Shown in pieces: positions 6,926-30,177 of a DNA stretch of 31,816 nt; position 1 is the first letter of the stretch; every line of letters starts with the position of its first letter. The stretch lies in IMG/VR virus record IMGVR_UViG_2563366912_000005; one strand, 5' to 3'. A program made the translations under genes and the position numbers. The DNA comes from a virus (lineage: Duplodnaviria; Heunggongvirae; Uroviricota; Caudoviricetes). The notes below the pieces were generated by a model. That model was given only the letters and a program-made list of their open reading frames with translations, was not told where the DNA came from and did not search any database.

Positions 6926-9015
6926 CCTCCGGAAGTCAGCCAGGGGTTAACATCGTCAGTTACTGTTTTCTTCCGTTTTTGTTTTTTAACAGGCGTGGAT
7001 ACCGGTTCCGGTGAGGATGACGGTTCGGTACTGTCCTGGACACACTCCAGCCAGGTCTCCCGGCTCGCCCACTCCGGTGCATCCGGCCAGCGGATCTTTT
7101 CGTATCCATGCAGAATGACCAGAGCCTCGGCATACACCATCAGGTCAAAAGCTTCGTTGGCACCGCGACCCGGCTTACTCCATTTCCCGTCACTGCTCCG
7201 CTCTTCATACATCAGTTCGTCGTAAAACCAGCTCCCCAGCCAGTCAGGGAAATGCACATAGCCTGGACCTGGCGAGTCACGCCATAACGCGTTATTCACC
7301 CGGTCTTTCAGGGCATCCGTCTGAAGAAGCCAGAGCGGCACATCACCTGCGGCCTGCGCCCGGCGGCCCGTTCGTCCGGTGTTATCAGGGAATGTACGGC
7401 TGATCAGTTTTGCGCGCCGGATGCTGTCACCCTTAAACAGGTAAATACGTTTACCAAGGCCATCACGACGGCAACGACGCCAGAATTTATAGGCATTATC
7501 AGTGACCCCGTCTTCACCGCCGGAGTCCACCGCCATTGCCATCAGTCGCATTTGTTGAGAAGGATCGGAGGCCAGCGGCCAGCTTTTATGAAAAACATCC
7601 GTCAGCAGGACATCCCAGTCTTCCGGATAGCTGGCCGGATCAATTCGCTGGCTCTCCCCGTCGCAGTCACTGCGCAATGACTGCGTGATGTTGTAACGAT
7701 CAATAATCCAGCGTTCGCCACGACTGCCATAGCCCGTTACCTGAACCACAAAACGGCGATGACGTCCCGCCTGCACATCCACTGTCGCCACAAGGAAATT
7801 AACGCCATCCGGCACACTGCGGGAAGGAACTGGCTCTGCCCGCTGCTCAAGCAGTTCACTTTTTCGTTGCTCCATGCTGGCACGAGGAAGATAAGGCAAT
7901 CCCCAGTCGGTGTTGATAACCGCCCTGAGTGTTTCTTCGCTTCCTGTCGCTTCATACTCCTGTTCTGCAGTCAGTAATTTGTAAACCAGTTGCGCCCAGG
8001 TCTGATACGCAGCAGCTGGCCCTTCCATCCAGAAACTGGCGATACGGGAGCGGCGCGGTTCACCGGAAACGTTGCCGTTACGATCAATGACCTGACCTTC
8101 ACGCAACCAGACTCCTGCACTATTGAGCTCACGCTTTTTCTCCGCAGTGATAATGCCGCTGCAGTGCGGGCAAAGTAGATACGCCGCCTCACTGGCTTTA
8201 AAGGGATCCGGTTCATTACGGTAGCCGGTCATGGCATCCATGGCTGGCTGAAAATATTCACCGCAGTGCGGACATGACCAGTACCAGCGGCGGCGGTCAC
8301 CACGATTGTAAAGGGAAAGAATACCAGTCGTCGGTGGCGCTTCATGAGGCGACTTACGTCGCCATTTGCTGTCGCAGATGTCACGTCCCGGCGAGCTCTC
8401 CACCAGAGTCATCCCGGCGGACATAAATGTGGTGGTACGTTTTGAGGCCAGGGAGAAACCATCACCCTCGCTGTCGATATTCTCCGGAAAACGGTCGTAA
8501 TCGGTTAAGGCGACAAACCGGTAATCCGACGACGACATAATGTTGACCGAGGGCCAACCAATTTTAAGGAACGAGCCATCCCTGAACGTCTTATCATGGA
8601 CATTATTGTCGTTACGACGTGGACTCATTCTTTTCTTTACCGCCGCACTGCTTCTGAACGTTCTGTCGAGGCGCTTTTTAGAATGCTCGCGGGCCTTATC
8701 TTCGGTCATCTGCACAACGAGCATGTCCGAAGGATCGCAAACGATGGTATAGACAATCCATCCATCGATCAGACCAATGGTCTTCCCTGTTCGCGCAGGA
8801 CCAACAAAAATCACCGCATCGTATTCACGCGATGCCAGGCAGTTCATGGGCTCAATGATGTAGGGTGTCAGTTCAGGATCCCATGGCACCGAGTTACCAG
8901 CCCCCTTGGGAACACGCATGAATTTTTTAACAGCCTCCGAAATCGGCATGCGACGTGGTGGGGAAAATCCTGCCGATATGTCCCTTCCCAAATTTCGGGC
9001 TGATGAAAAACCCAT
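6916..9015 (-). CDS. Terminase large subunit, lambda gpA-like
   Basis: 699 aa with CPHCGEYF zinc-ribbon-like motif and VHFPDW as in lambda gpA; AGGAGG ribosome-binding site 5 nt before ATG at 9015. Confidence 0.85.
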   Translation of the reverse strand: MGFSSARNLGRDISAGFSPPRRMPISEAVKKFMRVPKGAGNSVPWDPELTPYIIEPMNCLASREYDAVIFVGPARTGKTIGLIDGWIVYTIVCDPSDMLVVQMTEDKAREHSKKRLDRTFRSSAAVKKRMSPRRNDNNVHDKTFRDGSFLKIGWPSVNIMSSSDYRFVALTDYDRFPENIDSEGDGFSLASKRTTTFMSAGMTLVESSPGRDICDSKWRRKSPHEAPPTTGILSLYNRGDRRRWYWSCPHCGEYFQPAMDAMTGYRNEPDPFKASEAAYLLCPHCSGIITAEKKRELNSAGVWLREGQVIDRNGNVSGEPRRSRIASFWMEGPAAAYQTWAQLVYKLLTAEQEYEATGSEETLRAVINTDWGLPYLPRASMEQRKSELLEQRAEPVPSRSVPDGVNFLVATVDVQAGRHRRFVVQVTGYGSRGERWIIDRYNITQSLRSDCDGESQRIDPASYPEDWDVLLTDVFHKSWPLASDPSQQMRLMAMAVDSGGEDGVTDNAYKFWRRCRRDGLGKRIYLFKGDSIRRAKLISRTFPDNTGRTGRRAQAAGDVPLWLLQTDALKDRVNNALWRDSPGPGYVHFPDWLGSWFYDELMYEERSSDGKWSKPGRGANEAFDLMVYAEALVILHGYEKIRWPDAPEWASRETWLECVQDSTEPSSSPEPVSTPVKKQKRKKTVTDDVNPWLTSGGWL

Positions 9016-19275: not shown

Positions 19276-22876
<3,601 letters not shown>

Positions 22877-23240: not shown

Positions 23241-23642
23241 TTATCCCTGATAAAATGCCAGTATGCGCTGCATAACTTCACTCATCCGGCACTCGCGACA
23301 GATTATGTTTAGGCGACTGTCGTAGCGACGTATTTCTCCATCAGGTAACGACCAGATAACGTCCGGATCAACCACAGCTGTTTTCTTCACCTTTGCCCTC
23401 GAGAGTTTTTTGCGGGCGTTTTGCCAGTCCTTACGCGCCTGTTCAGACGGGAATAACCCGTAGCCGGAGTTGTATACATCGCCACTGGCTACCAGCTCTC
23501 TGGCAAGAACGCTCATCAGATATCTAGTCGCACCTGTTTTAGCTTCCAGTTGCCGTAACGTCTCACGACCGCTCTGGCGCACGAGTTCCACCACCTGCCC
23601 TTTAATTTTTTCCCGCTCTTCTTGTGTAAAAACTTTTGCCAC
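23241..23642 (-). CDS. Hypothetical protein downstream of the replication initiator
   Basis: 133-aa ORF in the position occupied by P in lambda, but too short to be a P or DnaC analogue. Confidence 0.45.
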   Translation of the reverse strand: MAKVFTQEEREKIKGQVVELVRQSGRETLRQLEAKTGATRYLMSVLARELVASGDVYNSGYGLFPSEQARKDWQNARKKLSRAKVKKTAVVDPDVIWSLPDGEIRRYDSRLNIICRECRMSEVMQRILAFYQG

Positions 23643-23682: not shown

Positions 23683-24648
23683 TTATCCTCTGAAACCAGG
23701 CGGAATTTCTGTATCCGGTTCAGAAATATGATTAACACAACGCTGTACAGGTGAACGCCCCAGGCGGATGACCAGTTCGTCCCATTTTTCGCGGAGCTTT
23801 GACGGGCTCATGATGTTTTTTACCCAGAATGGATCCCGCTGTACCCGACCAAACATTTCACAAATTTGTCTGTGGCTTCTGCCATCCAGCATCCGCATTG
23901 TGCGCACATCATTGGCCCAGACAGTCCAGTTAGGCTCTTTTGGTCGCATGATCTCGCCATCATCACTGGCGGCCTGTTCGTAGAGACCCACGATCCGCCC
24001 CCATATCCACTGCGCACACGCCAGATCCTCCTGGCTACCCCACTGGCGTTTTTTCGCACTAAACACAACTGCGCCAGGGTGCCGGATTAAAAAATCCTGT
24101 TCAGCCGTCTGCGGGTCCGGTTGCGAAGCTTCCGGACGAAAAGTGTTTTTATTCTCTGTAGTAATCTCTGTTGTATTCTCTGTAGGATCATCGGGCCATT
24201 TTGACCCGATGACATTGGGTCGTTTTGAACCAATGGAGCGTTTCATTTTGACCTCTTCCATCGTGTCATTTTGACCTGATGGAGCGGCGCATTTTGAACC
24301 GATGGATTCGCTCAATTTGCCATCATCTAAAAGCTCGCTCCCATAGTTAATCGTGTAGAAATTGGTCATATCGCGCTTTGATTTATTGAGCTTTTCACAA
24401 CGCAAAAGCCCCAGCGTTTTCAGACTTGCAAACGCGCGCTTTAACGTTGACTCTGACCAGAATGGGAACTGTTCCAACCATTGTTCCGTTGTGTTGTAAA
24501 TCCAGCGAACACCATCACATTCCATGCCGGAATTGGTATCTCTCAACCAGTAATGCAACTGCTGCAACACAATGGCTTCATTTAAGCCAATCTTCAGCGC
24601 AAGCTGTGTGTTTATAACCAGTGGGCGTTCAGCAAAAAGAAGGCTCAT
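23683..24648 (-). CDS. Replication initiator (lambda O-like) with origin iterons inside the gene
   Basis: N-terminal winged-helix-like region (LALKIGLNEAIVLQQLHYWL); central repeated IGSK motifs encoded by DNA iterons; start set at ATG 24648 because the track ORF begins with TTG. Confidence 0.7.
   Translation of the reverse strand: MSLLFAERPLVINTQLALKIGLNEAIVLQQLHYWLRDTNSGMECDGVRWIYNTTEQWLEQFPFWSESTLKRAFASLKTLGLLRCEKLNKSKRDMTNFYTINYGSELLDDGKLSESIGSKCAAPSGQNDTMEEVKMKRSIGSKRPNVIGSKWPDDPTENTTEITTENKNTFRPEASQPDPQTAEQDFLIRHPGAVVFSAKKRQWGSQEDLACAQWIWGRIVGLYEQAASDDGEIMRPKEPNWTVWANDVRTMRMLDGRSHRQICEMFGRVQRDPFWVKNIMSPSKLREKWDELVIRLGRSPVQRCVNHISEPDTEIPPGFRG
24189..24316. repeat. Replication origin iterons, five to six copies at about 23-bp spacing
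   Basis: Repeated TTTTGA(C/A)C..GATGG units at about 24200, 24223, 24247, 24270 and 24292, with an AT-rich TCTCTGT-repeat stretch adjacent (24130..24185). Confidence 0.6.
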
Positions 24649-25150
24649 AATTCCATCCAGCTTTTTGTTGGTATTGCTGTCGATACGCAAGTTTGAAAGC
24701 AATTGCTTTTTCTATAAGTTCGTCAGTTTCACGATCCACTACGGCAGGATCAGCAAAAAGCAGTCCGGACTCCACCACATCGCCATATTCTTTGTTTAAC
24801 CCGGCGATCATGTACGTGATGCTTTTTCCGTCACTAATTTCACGATACAACCTGAAATCATTAATCCGGATAGCCTCCATAATTGCAGGCACTAGCGCCG
24901 TGAACTTTTCACGCTTATCCCTGGTGTCGATAGCCTTCCAGCGTTCGAATATCTTCACTCGATTAACGCCAAGCGCTCGCTGATCAACCGCGCCACCTTC
25001 ATCTGTGACACGCTGAACATCGATGTTCGGGCGCTCTTTCAAAGCCCAGAATGCTTCAGTGATTAATATCGTCGCCTGCTCCTGTGTCATTCCTGGTCGA
25101 CATATCCAGGCATCCAGAGCCTCACGAGCCTGTTCAGGAGTGATTTTCAT
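24629..25150 (-). CDS. Hypothetical protein between the Cro-like gene and the replication initiator
   Basis: 173-aa ORF in the position of lambda cII; no cII similarity seen. Confidence 0.45.
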   Translation of the reverse strand: MKITPEQAREALDAWICRPGMTQEQATILITEAFWALKERPNIDVQRVTDEGGAVDQRALGVNRVKIFERWKAIDTRDKREKFTALVPAIMEAIRINDFRLYREISDGKSITYMIAGLNKEYGDVVESGLLFADPAVVDRETDELIEKAIAFKLAYRQQYQQKAGWNYEPSFC

Positions 25151-25364
25151 TGTTCAACCGCCCCGCCCGCTTCGTCTTACGATATTCGTCATAAACCTTG
25201 GGATCATACAGAAGCTCCCCGCCAGATGCCTCCTGTAGACGCATCGCGCGACCTTCAGGAACCAGTATCCCCCAAGCAGCAACACTTGCCAGTCTCACTC
25301 CTGCGGCATTGGCAAGCTTTGTTTTGCTGCCAAAAAAAGTAATTGCGTCAACTTTAAGCATCAA
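25134..25364 (-). CDS. dicC: DicC-like (Cro-type) regulator
   Basis: 76 aa with FGSKTKLANAAGVRLASV helix-turn-helix; divergent from dicA across an operator-bearing intergenic region. Confidence 0.75.
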   Translation of the reverse strand: MMLKVDAITFFGSKTKLANAAGVRLASVAAWGILVPEGRAMRLQEASGGELLYDPKVYDEYRKTKRAGRLNNENHS

Positions 25365-25440: not shown

Positions 25441-25848
25441 ATGGATACAAGAACCCTAGGCCAGCGAGTTCTGGCGCGACGAAAAGAATTACGCTTAACA
25501 CAACGAGAAGCTGCGCGCCTCGCTGGAGTTGCTCACGTCACAATTTCACAATGGGAAAGAGACGAAACCCAGCCAGTCGGAAAACGATTGTTTGCTTTAG
25601 CGGATGCTCTGAAGTGCTCACCTACATGGCTAATGTTTGGTGACGAAGACAAGGCACCAGTGCCTGTACAAGAACTTCATGTGGAAACAGAGCTAACTCC
25701 CAACCACAAAGAATTGATCGAATTATTCGATGCTCTTCCATCTTCCGAGCAGGAAGCCTTGCTGTCTGAAATGCGCGCAAGAGTAGAAAACTTCAACAAA
25801 CTCTTCGAAGAAATGCTTAAAGCGCGTAAAAATAAATCAATAAAATAA
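25441..25848 (+). CDS. dicA: DicA-like repressor (XRE-family helix-turn-helix)
   Basis: 135 aa; LTQREAARLAGVAHVTISQWERDETQP helix-turn-helix and ...CSPTWLMFGDEDK... pattern as in DicA as recalled. Confidence 0.85.
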   Translation: MDTRTLGQRVLARRKELRLTQREAARLAGVAHVTISQWERDETQPVGKRLFALADALKCSPTWLMFGDEDKAPVPVQELHVETELTPNHKELIELFDALPSSEQEALLSEMRARVENFNKLFEEMLKARKNKSIK

Positions 25849-27705: not shown

Positions 27706-30177
27706 ATGAGTAAAGTCTTTATTTGCGCCGCTATTCCTGACGAACTGGCAACAAGGGAAGAAGGCGCTGTGGCTGTAGCCACAGCCATTGAAGCTGGCGA
27801 CGAACGCCGTGCTCGAGCAAAATTTCACTGGCAATTCCTGGAACATTATCCGGCTGCTCAGGACTGCGCTTATAAATTTATTGTCTGCGAGGATAAACCT
27901 GGCATACCCCGCCCTGCCCTCGATTCATGGGATGCTGAATATATGCAGGAAAACCGCTGGGATGAGGAGTCTGCTTCTTTTGTCCCGAATGAGACTGAAT
28001 CCGATCCGATGAACGTCACTTTTGACAAGCTGGCCCCTGAAGTACAGAACGCTGTCATGGTTAAGTTCGACACATGTGAAAACATCACCGTTGATATGGT
28101 TATTAGCGCACAGGAATTGTTGCAGGAAGACATGGCAACATTCGACGGACATATCGTTGAAGCGTTGATGAAAATGCCAGAAGTTAACGCCATGTATCCG
28201 GAGCTTAAGTTGCACGCCATTGGGTGGGTTAAGCATAAATGTATTCCTGGTGCTAAATGGCCCGAAATTCAGGCAGAGATGCGCATCTGGAAAAAACGTC
28301 GCGAAGGTGAACGCAAGGAAACCGGAAAATACACGTCTGTTGTTGATCTCGCACGCGCCAGAGCCAATCAACAGTACACTGAAAATTCAACAGGAAAAAT
28401 CAGCCCGGTCATTGCTGCCATTCATCGCGAATACAAGCAGACATGGAAAACACTGGATGACGAACTGGCCTACGCTCTCTGGCCTGGTGATGTGGATGCC
28501 GGAAACATTGACGGCAGCATCCATCGCTGGGCAAAAAAAGAAGTTATCGACAACGACCGCGAAGACTGGAAGCGTATCTCGGCATCAATGCGCAAACAGC
28601 CTGATGCCCTTCGCTACGACCGCCAGACTATTTTTGGCCTTGTCCGTGAGCGTCCGATCGACATTCACAAAGATCCCGTAGCACTGAACAAATATATCTG
28701 CGAATACCTGACGACAAAGGGCGTGTTTGAGAATGAAGAAACAGACCTGGGCACTGTTGATGTTCTCCAGTCATCAGAAACACAAACTGATGCAGTGGAA
28801 ACTGAGGTATCTGATATCCCAAAAAATGAAACCGCGCCGGAAGCTGAACCATCTGTAGAGCGTGAGGGGCCGTTCTATTTCCTCTTCGCAGATAAGGACG
28901 GAGAAAAATACGGTCGCGCAAACAAACTTTCTGGTCTGGATAAGGCACTGGCTGCTGGCGCCACTGAAATCACAAAAGAAGAATATTTTGCCCGAAAAAA
29001 TGGCACATACACGGGCTTACCGCAAAATGTAGATACCGCTGAAGATTCAGAACAACCAGAGCCGATAAAAGTTACCGCTGACGAAGTAAACAAAATTATG
29101 CAGGCAGCCAATATCAGCCAGCCTGACGCTGATAAGTTGCTTGCTGCATCACGTGGTGAATTTGTTGAAGGGATTAGTGACCCGAATGATCCGAAATGGG
29201 TTAAGGGGATCCAGACCCGCGATTCTGTGAACCAGAACCAGCATGAATCGGAACGGAACTACCAAAAAGCGGAACAAAACAGTCCAAATGCGTTACAAAA
29301 CGAGCCAGTAACGAAACAGCCTGAACCAGTAGCGCAACAGGAAGTGGAAAAAGTCTGCACCGCCTGCGGTCAGACCGGCGGCGGCAACTGCCCTGATTGT
29401 GGCGCGGTGATGGGCGACGCAACATACCAGGAAACATTCGATGAAGAGTATCAGGTTGAAGTTCAGGAAGATGATCCGGAGGAAATGCAAGGCGCTGAAC
29501 ATCCACACAAGGAGAACACTGGCGGCAATCAGCATCACAATAGCGATAATGAAACTGGCGAGACGGCAGATCACCCAATTAAGGTGAACGGTCATCACGA
29601 AATCACATCCACCAGCAGGGCGTGTGACCATCTAATGATCGACCTTGAAACCATGGGAAAAAATCCTGATGCCCCGATCATCTCAATAGGTGCAATATTT
29701 TTCGATCCGCAAACCGGAGATATGGGACCGGAATTTAGTAAGACTATCGATCTGGAAACTGCTGGCGGAGTCATTGATCGGGACACCATTAAATGGTGGC
29801 TTAAGCAATCACGCGAAGCGCAATCTGCCATTATGACCGATGAAATCCCGTTAGATGATGCACTGTTACAATTGCGGGAATTTATCGACGAAAACTCCGG
29901 TGAATTTTTTGTTCAGGTTTGGGGAAATGGAGCCAACTTCGACAACACGATTTTGCGCCGTTCATACGAACGGCAGGGGATCCCCTGCCCGTGGCGTTAC
30001 TACAACGATCGCGATGTACGCACAATCGTTGAGCTGGGGAAAGCCATAGACTTCGATGCCAGAACGGCTATTCCATTCGAAGGTGAGCGCCATAATGCAC
30101 TTGATGACGCCCGTTACCAGGCAAAATACGTTTCAGTTATCTGGCAAAAACTGATCCCGAGTCAGGCTGATTCTTAA
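27706..30177 (+). CDS. Large prophage exonuclease (YdfE-like position) with C-terminal DEDDh-type 3'-5' exonuclease domain
   Basis: C-terminal motifs MIDLETMG, WGNGANFDNTIL and H-NALDDARY are DnaQ-like; central acidic low-complexity linker with a CTACG..CPDCG zinc ribbon; TGAGGT ribosome-binding site. Confidence 0.75.
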   Translation: MSKVFICAAIPDELATREEGAVAVATAIEAGDERRARAKFHWQFLEHYPAAQDCAYKFIVCEDKPGIPRPALDSWDAEYMQENRWDEESASFVPNETESDPMNVTFDKLAPEVQNAVMVKFDTCENITVDMVISAQELLQEDMATFDGHIVEALMKMPEVNAMYPELKLHAIGWVKHKCIPGAKWPEIQAEMRIWKKRREGERKETGKYTSVVDLARARANQQYTENSTGKISPVIAAIHREYKQTWKTLDDELAYALWPGDVDAGNIDGSIHRWAKKEVIDNDREDWKRISASMRKQPDALRYDRQTIFGLVRERPIDIHKDPVALNKYICEYLTTKGVFENEETDLGTVDVLQSSETQTDAVETEVSDIPKNETAPEAEPSVEREGPFYFLFADKDGEKYGRANKLSGLDKALAAGATEITKEEYFARKNGTYTGLPQNVDTAEDSEQPEPIKVTADEVNKIMQAANISQPDADKLLAASRGEFVEGISDPNDPKWVKGIQTRDSVNQNQHESERNYQKAEQNSPNALQNEPVTKQPEPVAQQEVEKVCTACGQTGGGNCPDCGAVMGDATYQETFDEEYQVEVQEDDPEEMQGAEHPHKENTGGNQHHNSDNETGETADHPIKVNGHHEITSTSRACDHLMIDLETMGKNPDAPIISIGAIFFDPQTGDMGPEFSKTIDLETAGGVIDRDTIKWWLKQSREAQSAIMTDEIPLDDALLQLREFIDENSGEFFVQVWGNGANFDNTILRRSYERQGIPCPWRYYNDRDVRTIVELGKAIDFDARTAIPFEGERHNALDDARYQAKYVSVIWQKLIPSQADS

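Follow-up and report, generated by a model that had tools for sequence, protein, structure and literature searches.

The window, the whole 31,816-nt stretch of DNA analysed here (IMG/VR record IMGVR_UViG_2563366912_000005, Caudoviricetes), carries an O-like replication initiator gene whose interior holds two sets of periodic DNA elements (Table 1). A Cro/DicC-like gene heads the early operon, whose transcription traverses the candidate origin described below, the YdaT/CII-like gene overlaps the start of the initiator by 20 nt, and a DUF977/Ren-like gene stands at the position of lambda's P, an order that is the same in phage HannyBb and in E. coli EC1722-1. No match to the P, DnaC or DnaB families was found in the five scanned neighbour genes or in the annotation of relatives. 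An IS100 element lies 370 nt past the DUF977/Ren-like gene; it interrupts a DUF7380/DUF4209 gene outside the replication module, and its exact junction had no match among 5426 complete E. coli genomes. The replication module itself is uninterrupted.

Table 1. Genes, protein domains and DNA elements at the initiator locus (window coordinates)
Feature	Position	Strand	Remarks
DUF977/LygF/Ren-like gene	23241-23642	-	Directly downstream of initiator; PF06163 E 1.4e-26; phrog_142 E 2e-44
O-like replication initiator gene	23683-24648	-	321 aa from ATG 24648; stop codon 23683-23685
C-terminal tail, aa 301-321	23686-23748	-	..VNHISEPDTEIPPGFRG; resembles C-terminus of host primosomal protein DnaT
C-terminal domain, ~aa 183-296	23761-24102	-	Homologous to lambda O C-domain
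Imperfect palindrome	24116-24137		TCCGG..GAAGCTTC..CCGGA; just beyond 12-mers; weak evidence here
A+T-rich stretch	24138-24185		Contains the 12-mers; composition profile
Three 12-nt repeats	24148-24183	-	ACAGAGAnTAnn on sense strand; candidate unwinding element
12-mer	24148-24159	-	ACAGAGAATAAA
12-mer	24160-24171	-	ACAGAGATTACT
12-mer	24172-24183	-	ACAGAGAATACA
Iteron array	24189-24327	-	Six 23-nt units; gene nt 322-460 of 966
Iteron c1	24189-24211	-	
Iteron c2	24213-24235	-	
Iteron c3	24236-24258	-	
Iteron c4	24259-24281	-	
Iteron c5	24282-24304	-	
Iteron c6	24305-24327	-	
N-terminal domain, aa 1-107	24328-24648	-	Presumed iteron-binding winged helix; non-lambda-O type
YdaT/CII-like gene	24629-25150	-	Upstream of initiator; PF06254 E 1.2e-5; phrog_163 E 2e-40
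Cro/DicC-like regulator	25134-25364	-	PF14549 P22_Cro E 2.7e-11; DicC annotation in relatives
Divergent HTH repressor	25441-25848	+	Immunity region; PF01381 E 1.5e-14

The initiator matched the PHROG profile of O-like replication initiation proteins (phrog_391) with an E-value of 7.4e-92, residues 37-339 of the 339-aa open reading frame aligning to positions 14-298 of the 298-position profile. Its start codon is the one annotated in relatives, the MSLL N-terminus is conserved across the family, and comparison with HannyBb revealed no frameshift and no stop. Pfam and NCBIfam scans of the protein returned no domain, only noise and a 20-residue DnaT tail. The N-terminal domain failed to match PF04492 (Phage_rep_O) even at E<=1, whereas lambda O itself scored 5.7e-36, and neither hhalign (probability 0.1) nor BLASTP related it to the N-domain of lambda O. 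The AF2 model of this domain shows an H-H-E-E-H-H-E topology at pLDDT 60-76. Since the structure prediction is of low confidence (mean pLDDT 55), fold matches serve as a hint only; the best PDB entries in Foldseek, 4pql and 5kbj (plasmid RepA N-domain/Rep-DNA complex), were weak (E 6e-3) and were followed by generic winged-helix regulators. The N-domain represents a Pfam-unassigned, probably winged-helix family distinct from that of lambda O.

The N-domain is followed by a linker of about 70 residues that is disordered in the model (aa 109-177, pLDDT <30) and by a C-terminal domain that is helical in the model. BLASTP aligned aa 147-294 with residues 135-270 of lambda O (148 aa, 34% identity, E 3e-27), an alignment that begins at the last unit of the iteron array, which sits in the interdomain linker. 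Judged by sequence, the likeness to lambda O is confined to the C-terminal domain. The last residues of the protein matched the end of the NCBIfam DnaT model NF002770 (profile positions 160-179 of 179, E 0.0057) with a score of 16 bits where the cut-off is 201, and matched the DnaT chains 2ru8, 6aep and 9zbt_D of the PDB with 15 of 21 residues identical (E 0.013-0.04). The likeness to DnaT thus appears as a common tail of the last ~20 residues only, with no membership of DnaT itself, and the same tail is also found on relatives with a different C-domain. The available part of a paper on the preprimosome (PMC13377028) states no role for the extreme C-terminus of DnaT.

The starts of the six iterons on the plus strand (24189, 24213, 24236, 24259, 24282 and 24305) are spaced by 24, 23, 23, 23 and 23 nt. 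Self-identity at lag 23 over positions 24186-24330 was 0.533, compared with 0.337 +/- 0.021 in shuffled sequence (z 9.5), a value that none of 2000 shuffles reached, and Tandem Repeats Finder reported a period of 23 with 3.7 copies together with a period of 12 with 2.8 copies. Counted computationally, the string TTTTGAMCYRATG occurs exactly in four of the six iterons (24199, 24223, 24269 and 24292), and at <=1 mismatch it has six matches in the whole window against 0.67 expected, a count qualified by the fact that the pattern was taken from the same data. Iterons c1, c2 and c4 come close to perfect 23-nt palindromes (sense strand CATCGGGTCAAAATGGCCCGATG), their outer arms being complementary at 6-7 of 8 positions; c5 keeps one arm, and c3 and c6 are degenerate and retain hardly more than the core. 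Good palindromes make up no more than three or four of the six units, which counts against reading the array as an origin. In single-stranded DNA prediction the iterons fold into hairpins and the 12-mer stretch is unstructured. Three DnaA boxes were detected in the window (3.3 expected), none of them within the array. A second periodic stretch of the window (lag 21, ~29181-29345) turned out to be the Q/E/N-rich linker of an exonuclease gene, where Tandem Repeats Finder returned nothing.

Five TCAAAA cores of the array fall in reading frames 0, 2, 1, 0 and 0. The motif IGSK appears three times in the translation of the initiator, and the other iterons accordingly encode SGQN and EEVK. Since the iterons occupy all three reading frames, they are repeats of DNA and not of peptide. 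The first-pass annotation had described five to six direct repeats at about 23-bp spacing inside the O-like gene, which the count and the shuffles bear out, and had held that they encode IGSK, which is true of part of the array only.

On the transcriptionally downstream side of the iterons, the A+T content rises to 0.70, compared with 0.52 for the initiator gene (GC 0.37-0.38 in composition windows starting at 24120-24140), and the sense strand is purine-rich (purine 0.62). The first-pass annotation had noted here an A+T-rich stretch with TCTCTGT repeats; we recovered three copies (24153, 24165 and 24177) with a 12-nt period, each part of one of the 12-mers, and the 19-nt pattern ACAGAGANTACWACAGAGA had two matches at the 12-mers against 0.01 expected in the window. 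The 12-mer block is short (36 nt) and only about 70% A+T, which counts against reading it as part of an origin. The small palindrome just beyond occupies a position equivalent to that of the right-hand ori palindrome of lambda, TTCGTCAGAGAATTCTGGCGAATCC. Two relatives (L220 and L256) possess a near-lambda version of the latter; in other relatives from Enterobacterales it takes the form GGTTnC-N3-GnAACC, whose arms change in a compensatory way.

The initiator is 97-99.9% identical over 1151 nt in the phage records HannyBb, mEp460_ev081 and PhiR42_1 and in many E. coli prophages. The modules of these plaque-forming phages have the same gene content, also without a loader, and the exact module occurs in 1743 of 5426 complete E. 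coli genomes (>=80% coverage), about a third. A scan of viral contigs with the N-domain of the window was useless for covariation because it returned only 99%-identical E. coli prophages. The comparative sample was obtained instead by motif and profile scans of species-representative genomes; its 80 relatives were selected on protein and dereplicated by species. Significant periodicity just upstream of the 12-mers was present in 58 of 74 genes of this sample, the best lag being 23 nt in 40. The layout recurs in related genes of many bacterial orders; the iterons of these relatives share a constant CAA(A/T)(A/T)TG core, and their arms covary between lineages (GGAT/ATCC, GTAT/ATAC, GGTG/CACC, AGGA/TCCT, GAGGG/CCCTC). 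Compensatory change in inverted arms around a constant core is the mark expected where a protein binds as a dimer.

The 12-mers are conserved at the level of nucleotides. At least two CAGAGA motifs exactly 12 nt apart occur in 49 of the 80 genes. When motifs were defined on protein alone, Thr was encoded by ACA in 107/108 cases (27% elsewhere; Fisher 2e-55) and Glu by GAG in 104/108 (47% elsewhere; Fisher 2e-27), P values that overstate independence because the sampled sequences are related by descent and horizontal transfer. Conservation spans phages of Enterobacterales, Staphylococcus, Bacillaceae and Campylobacterales hosts and holds 11 of the 12 positions, the sole free position being a second codon position; furthermore, CAGAGA persists where the amino acid before E changes to A, S, P or R. 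The orientation of the block is constant, and its distance past the last iteron core is usually 17-20 nt.

The N-domain family comprises 10,149 representative clusters at E<=1e-3. The alignment shows that the window N-domain carries its GLNEAIxLQQ..YW and FPFWS motifs, and the window displays the complete pattern of palindromic iterons of ~23 nt, CAA(A/T)(A/T)TG core and at least two ACAGAGAnTACw at a 12-nt period, a cassette of N-domain, iterons and 12-mers that is a grouping defined in this analysis and not a curated family. Klebsiella and Pantoea phages carry these three parts together with a different C-domain, and their DNA homology to the window is lost at the 12-mers, behaviour of a cassette that favours the origin reading. 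Two other types of N-domain also accompany 12-mers, and their hhalign probabilities against the N-domain profile (19% and 55%) are only suggestive. A search of the literature found no description of the 12-mer or of mEp460/Qin-type origins, though an earlier description is possible; 11-nt strings of the 12-mer led to unrelated papers only.

Several known systems help to place these elements. The iterons of lambda (NC_001416, 39034-39118) lie within gene O at gene nt 349-433, compared with nt 322-460 in the window. Both loci have direct repeats with internal dyad symmetry, a TCAAAAYG-type A-tract core and a spacing of 20-24 bp, both arrays lie between the two domains of an initiator with homologous C-terminal domains, and in both an A+T-rich stretch skewed towards purines lies downstream, with a palindrome after it. 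However, the window has six units of 23 nt where lambda has four of 18-19 nt, and arms of CATCGG/CCGATG where lambda has TCCCT/AGGGA; its N-domain is not PF04492; its A+T-rich stretch is made of exact 12-mers that are absent from lambda; its initiator bears a terminal DnaT-like tail, for which lambda O has no counterpart; and the next gene is DUF977 and not P. The lambdoid origin-within-O arrangement proposed by the first-pass annotation is supported by the position in the linker, the A+T-rich stretch downstream and the selection at the DNA level, with the qualifications that homology to lambda O is confined to the C-domain and that no P-like gene follows. In Stx phages 933W and P27, as in lambda, the middle of O holds iterons and an A+T-rich tract; only four of the six iteron-like units are strongly bound in vitro, and the extra iterons lengthen the linker of the O protein (PMC7466680). 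The three to four well-formed and two to three degenerate iterons of the window resemble this pattern; the O and P proteins of Stx phages are close to those of lambda, whereas the N-domain and iterons of the window are unrelated and P is absent.

The best, though weak, fold matches of the N-domain belong to the RepA_N plasmid initiators (RepA of pSK41 and pTZ2162), which combine a winged-helix N-domain and a C-domain specific to the host with iterons in the middle of the rep gene. The window N-domain showed no similarity to RepA_N in sequence, the Pfam RepA_N family was unmatched, and RepA_N systems, unlike the phage module of the window, are those of Gram-positive plasmids. Phage replisome organiser or DnaD-like initiators (PHROGs 6493, 2514 and 428, of the Staphylococcus phage phiIPLA88 gp17 type) belong to the same N-domain family. 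The N-domain reached 51% identity with Staphylococcus phages in tblastn, the iteron CATCGGGACAAAATGGCCCGAC of this group is identical to c1 at 21 of 23 positions, and an ACAGAGA motif lies past the iterons as it does in the window. These initiators have a DnaB_2/DnaD-like C-domain and are followed by genes for a helicase loader and a DnaB-like helicase, neither of which the window has. The DnaA-trios of bacterial oriC, the DnaD recognition element and the plasmid DUE 13-mers, one strand of which is engaged by Rep, are sequence-specific unwinding elements. The 12-mers are likewise short, phased and strand-asymmetric repeats immediately beside the presumed double-strand binding sites of the initiator, a likeness that is functional analogy only; unlike the DnaA-trios and DUE 13-mers, they have a period of 12 nt (and not 3-4 or 13), are unrelated in sequence and lie inside a coding region.

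All of the computationally checkable features agree, and in consequence support the reading that this locus is very probably the replication origin of a Qin/mEp460-like lambdoid Escherichia prophage, embedded in its own initiator gene. An origin within an initiator is of a known kind; the conserved 12-mer sub-element is possibly undescribed. By sequence, the protein consists of an N-terminal domain, a linker disordered in the model and a lambda-O-like C-domain, the DNA that encodes the linker carrying the origin. From palindromy and covariation, we infer that winged-helix dimers of the N-domain bind c1, c2, c4 and probably c5, and that the degenerate c3 and c6 would be bound weakly. With a CAAAATG A-tract core every 23 bp, the array may wrap into an O-some-like complex, the strain of which would open the adjacent 12-mer block, by analogy with lambda and iteron plasmids. 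Because its exact sequence is conserved, the block is probably more than an easily melted stretch and a target of sequence-specific recognition, perhaps in single-stranded form. The C-domain and the DnaT-like tail might then recruit host DnaB-DnaC or primosome proteins directly, a step that is a guess since no loader is encoded. Transcription from the cro-side promoter crosses the origin and, as in lambda, may activate it.

Tentatively, the ACAGAGAnTACw 12-mers could be a sequence-specific origin element common to phage initiators with winged-helix N-domains, a very large superfamily whose hosts range from Enterobacterales to Firmicutes and Campylobacterales. If so, either a conserved surface of the initiator or a replication protein universal among hosts would recognise them, possibly on a single strand of the opened duplex, and they would be to phages what DnaA-trios are to bacterial oriC or Rep-bound DUE repeats to plasmids. 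With DnaT-tail C-termini in Enterobacterales or DnaD-like ones in Firmicutes, such initiators would feed the opened 12-mers to host restart-primosome adaptors, loading the helicase without a phage loader. Alternatively, the 12-mers might be mainly a recombination joint at which cassettes of N-domain and iterons are swapped with C-modules, and not an element of unwinding or recognition. This proposal is limited to the 12-mers and leaves room for the iterons as origin. In its favour, the window and the Klebsiella phages lose DNA homology at 24153, where the block has its edge; the block lies exactly where a conserved N-module joins one of three or more kinds of C-module (lambda-O-C-like, Phg_2220_C and DnaB_2), and its copy number varies by whole units. 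Yet a non-functional joint should decay within lineages, whereas nearly every position is kept across hosts, orientation and distance from the iterons are stable, and the position of the block matches the A+T-rich opening region of lambda. A mere joint is for these reasons doubtful.

It is unlikely that the locus is a relic, a genuine origin-type sequence from which the prophage is unable to replicate, for instance for want of a loader or because the prophage is defective. Defects are frequent among Qin-type prophages, the initiator has no P, DnaC or DnaB gene beside it, IS100 lies close beyond the next gene, and some natural alleles have lost four units (P0018-P0023). However, the same loader-less module, 97% identical, is found in three phage genome records, the reading frame of the initiator is intact, IS100 hits a gene other than those of the replication module, and the window copy retains six iterons and three 12-mers. 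The suggestion of the first-pass annotation that the module is intact is supported only indirectly, by the uninterrupted gene, its close identity to that of phage records and the like gene content of their modules.

That the iterons are mainly sites of regulation or exclusion (autoregulation, titration, handcuffing or interference with related phages), and not of initiation, is very improbable. Plasmid iterons do have secondary regulatory roles, and ectopic copies of the lambda ori inhibit lambda, according to the available parts of two reports (PMC3349717, PMC4488673). The iterons of the window nevertheless lie within a coding region, far from the promoter, they are always paired with the 12-mer and A+T-rich block in the geometry of an origin, and the module showed no second candidate for an origin. 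Finally, although the model shows a disordered linker and the translation contains IGSK and TE.TTE repeatedly, it is scarcely credible that the repeats are a by-product of a low-complexity peptide (IGSK, TENTTE) with no DNA function, an idea largely refuted by iterons that encode different peptides in three frames, by frozen synonymous positions, by a CAGAGA that is kept despite amino-acid change and by a covariation of inverted arms that would be meaningless for a peptide.

The origin that we place within this O-like gene is textbook in kind. At the level of the family, the picture is that of a portable cassette in which the N-domain is combined with palindromic 23-bp iterons, whose arms are specific to the lineage, and with a 12-mer repeat that hardly varies; sequence should therefore suffice to locate the origins of thousands of phages and prophages from unrelated hosts. 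The covariation of the arms would constitute a natural specificity code for a predicted DNA-binding domain without a Pfam family, and the 12-mers point to a sequence-specific step in the opening of the origin. Furthermore, a module without a loader whose initiator bears a DnaT-like tail offers a lead on how such phages may recruit the host helicase.

The initiator gene holds six 23-nt units (c1-c6), which confirms the iterons that the first-pass annotation had placed about 23 bp apart in an O-like gene, with a computational count as the proposed check. Tandem Repeats Finder recovered the period-23 array, and the lag-23 self-identity of 24186-24330 was 0.533, against 0.337 +/- 0.021 for the best lag of shuffled sequences (z 9.5; 0/2000). 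The array contains four exact copies of the half-site TTTTGAMCYRATG, and the rest of the 31.8 kb only one. That lone copy (TTTTGACCTGATG) lies in the structural-gene region, distant from the origin, and is probably due to chance (0.67 matches expected at <=1 mismatch). The only other strong short-period self-similarity in the window (29181-29345; lag 21, score 0.58) is a Q/E/N-rich linker within an exonuclease gene, for which Tandem Repeats Finder reported no repeat. The CAAAATG core is flanked by a near-perfect palindrome in c1, c2 and c4, a single arm is retained in c5, and little more than the core in c3 and c6. The five TCAAAA cores lie in frames 0, 2, 1, 0 and 0, and the units therefore encode IGSK, SGQN and EEVK; the earlier description of IGSK-encoding repeats holds for some units only.

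Coordinates of origin elements and other features in the window (for c1-c6, plus-strand start of the unit)
Feature	Position	Strand	Remarks
Initiator ORF	23683-24702	-	from first TTG; iterons inside
c1	24189		sense-strand sequence CATCGGGTCAAAATGGCCCGATG
c2	24213		sense-strand sequence CATTGGTTCAAAACGACCCAATG
c3	24236		sense-strand sequence GAAGAGGTCAAAATGAAACGCTC
c4	24259		sense-strand sequence CATCAGGTCAAAATGACACGATG
c5	24282		sense-strand sequence CATCGGTTCAAAATGCGCCGCTC
c6	24305		sense-strand sequence GATGATGGCAAATTGAGCGAATC
12-mers	24183 down to 24148		ACAGAGAATACA, ACAGAGATTACT, ACAGAGAATAAA
Initiator tail	23686-23748	-	aa 301-321, ..VNHISEPDTEIPPGFRG
YdaT/CII-like gene	24629-25150	-	overlaps initiator ATG by 20 nt (24629-24648)
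IS100	20918-22871		complete, 1954 bp; 28-nt imperfect terminal inverted repeats
istA	21004-22026		in IS100
istB	22023-22805		in IS100
DUF7380/DUF4209 gene	19276-...		disrupted by IS100; remnant end 23022
Exonuclease gene	27706-30177	+	823 aa
Lone half-site	7138-7150	-	exact copy

Directly downstream of the iterons, in the direction of the gene, lie three 12-mers (period-12 array at 24153-24185, Tandem Repeats Finder) where A+T is 70%, compared with 52% in the gene; the description of TCTCTGT repeats in an adjoining AT-rich stretch is accurate. We sampled 80 loci from species-representative genomes with the N-domain profile (alignment A1), the genome scan itself using only the peptide GLN[EN]AI[VIF]LQ; the hosts spanned Enterobacterales, Pseudomonas, Xenorhabdus, Campylobacterales, Bacillaceae, Staphylococcus and Lactobacillaceae. 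At least two CAGAGA spaced exactly 12 nt were present within gene nt 400-550 in 49/80 sampled genes. When motifs were chosen by protein alone (TE..TE, 35 genes), the 12-mer Thr codon was ACA in 107/108 cases, compared with 384/1424 elsewhere (Fisher 2e-55), and the Glu codon was GAG in 104/108, compared with 755/1599 elsewhere (Fisher 2e-27); since the sampled sequences are not phylogenetically independent, the significance is at most that given by these P values, and the direction is unambiguous. The bias persists across gene GC of 0.32-0.62. The consensus of 156 copies is A(.76)-CAGAGA-N-T(.94)-A(.91)-C(.84)-W, its free position being the middle base of a codon for N, I, T or S, and CAGAGA is kept even where A, S, P or R precedes Glu.

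In 58 of 74 sampled genes, significant periodicity was present in the 170 nt preceding the first CAGAGA, with a best lag of 23 nt in 40 and of 22-24 nt in 51. In stacked iterons the CAA(A/T)(A/T)TG core is constant and the arms vary by lineage, remaining complementary within each site (GGAT..ATCC, GTAT..ATAC, GGTG..CACC, AGGA..TCCT, GAGGG..CCCTC, CTGTT..AGCAG). Such compensatory changes are what a dimeric, sequence-specific binder would predict. Overall, comparison among relatives shows iterons and 12-mers to be under constraint at the DNA level.

Natural initiator alleles differ by entire units (alignment A2; P0018-P0023, P0100/P0119): in several E. coli a 290-aa version is shorter by exactly 31 aa (93 nt), corresponding to units c5-c2 (window 24213-24304), and Citrobacter/Salmonella forms carry one more TTEN/TTES, that is, one more 12-mer (window 24148-24183). 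The common N-domain, iterons and 12-mers are joined to another C-domain (Phg_2220_C) in Klebsiella and Pantoea phages and to a DnaB_2/DnaD-like domain in Staphylococcus phages. At the DNA level, homology of the window to the Klebsiella phages ends at 24153, and the sole megablast match of Pantoea phage AH07 is 24115-24211, comprising the 12-mers and c1. These distributions show, at the level of sequence comparison, that the N-domain is co-inherited with the iterons. A scan of IMG/VR with ACAGAGANTACWACAGAGA matched at least 120 stretches, 80 of which were fetched; the motif was in frame in about 73 of the 80 (counted by reading), in ORFs of about 170-490 aa, and usually near aa 135-200 in complete ORFs. 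The N-domain HMM matched 54 of the approximately 73. Most remaining ORFs have other N-domains of similar general pattern (..LLSEIVYWY.., ..IFFGQIFYWQ..), and for two of these hhalign scores against the family profile were only suggestive.

The element is laid out like ori-lambda and like the origins of Stx phages, in which four of the six iterons are strongly bound (PMC7466680). Annotated lambda iterons occupy gene O nt 349-433 and the units of the window nt 322-460, in genes of similar length; lambda iterons (ATCCCTCAAAACGAGGGA) and those of the window have a central TCAAAAYG in common but differ in their arms. Past its A+T stretch lambda carries the palindrome TTCGTCAGAGAATTCTGGCGAATCC, whereas the equivalent place in the window reads TTCGTCCGGAAGCTTCGCAACC, with a perfect palindrome of only 8 bp. 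A near copy of the lambda palindrome (TTCGTC..GAATTC..GACGAA) is found in relatives L220 and L256. In many Enterobacterales relatives (L221-L255 and others), 10-25 nt past the last 12-mer, there is TCTTGTCA-GGTTnC-NNN-GnAACC-CGAC, a 6-bp inverted repeat with compensatory arms (GGTTCC/GGAACC, GGTTGC/GCAACC, GGTTTC/GAAACC). It may represent a third element of the origin, of which the window (24116-24137) carries a degenerate version.

The initiator, 321 aa from the ATG at 24648 annotated in relatives, belongs to PHROG 391, 'replication initiation O-like' (E 7e-92). Only the C-terminal halves of lambda O and the window protein align by BLASTP (135-270 against aa 147-294; 34% identity, E 3e-27), the alignment starting at the last iteron and spanning the A+T-rich stretch. 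Lambda O matches PF04492 at 6e-36, whereas the window protein has no match even at E<=1, and a Pfam search of it matched no family. The two N-domains (hhalign probability 0.1) appear unrelated at the testable level. Full membership in the lambda O family was rejected because both PF04492 and a partner P were tested for and found absent. The protein is chimeric, with a C-domain homologous to that of lambda O, an N-domain of non-lambda type and no P partner.

Every close homologue is listed as 'hypothetical protein', with no Pfam domain. The N-domain family comprises 10,149 clusters at 50% identity (E<=1e-3), and half of the best 131 representatives have a TE.TTE-type peptide at aa ~125-165. Many distant relatives of 400-880 aa (P0124, P0128, P0129, P0131, P0134 and others) have two tandem N-domains, mostly without TE.TTE, and may be a different initiator class built from the same domain. 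A low-confidence AF2 model from a shallow alignment (mean pLDDT 55) gave an N-domain topology of H-H-E-E-H-H-E (pLDDT 60-76), a helical C-domain, and pLDDT <30 at aa 109-177, exactly the residues encoded by iterons and 12-mers. Among PDB folds, Foldseek ranked the staphylococcal plasmid RepA N-domain and its complex with DNA first (4pql, 5kbj; E 6e-3) and generic winged-helix regulators after them, a hint that the modeled N-domain may be a winged helix.

The order HTH repressor (+), Cro/DicC-like (-), YdaT/CII-like (-), initiator (-) and DUF977/Ren-like (-) is that of a lambdoid early-right operon, and the overlap of the YdaT/CII-like gene with the initiator points to translational coupling. 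In some database proteins (P0002-P0004; 448 aa, PF06254) these two ORFs are fused. The 1151 nt around the initiator are 99.9% identical to prophages of many E. coli, are present at >=80% coverage in 1743 of 5426 complete E. coli genomes, and are 97% identical to phages HannyBb, mEp460_ev081 and PhiR42_1. The neighbours in E. coli genomes (dicB, ydfA, ydfD, rem, hokD, ydfU, ydfT) are those of a Qin-like prophage. No P, DnaC or DnaB gene adjoins the initiator in the E. coli prophages or in these three phages, and the window's initiator ORF shows no defect when compared with HannyBb. IS100 disrupts a gene past DUF977 that is intact in related prophages and leaves the replication module untouched; its exact junction is absent among the 5426 genomes.

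With the array and A+T stretch in an O-like gene and constraint at the DNA level, the lambdoid ori-within-O reading is supported, by analogy, as an origin working like ori-lambda. We propose that N-domain dimers would bind the palindromic units and wrap DNA, that the neighbouring 12-mer block would then open, and that the C-domain would recruit the host helicase. That the 12-mers are conserved so exactly speaks for recognition of their specific sequence rather than for mere ease of melting. The N-domain alone is co-inherited with 12-mers across all hosts and is therefore the first candidate for recognising them; next after it comes a universal host replication protein. One possible lead for helicase recruitment is the initiator tail, identical at 15 of 21 positions to the C-terminus of E. 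coli DnaT (vqrcVNhiSEPDteIPPGFRG against pkrdVNtvSEPDsqIPPGFRG). In the PriA-PriB restart primosome, DnaT serves as the adaptor on the way to loading of DnaB-DnaC (PMC13377028, PMC13220808). Relatives in Klebsiella, Pantoea and Hafnia whose C-domains differ also end in ..PxGFR(G/S), and the DnaT-like tail may be a portable motif that hijacks host helicase loading in a module without a P gene.

Our literature searches, which did not cover the main review of phage replication modules, found no description of the 12-mer or of a mEp460/Qin-type phage origin, and a prior description is possible. As an origin lying within the initiator gene of a prophage that is very common in E. coli, the element is of an ordinary kind. 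Its details are those of a variant: the DNA-binding domain is different, the module lacks a loader, and the 12-mer repeat is conserved to a striking degree.
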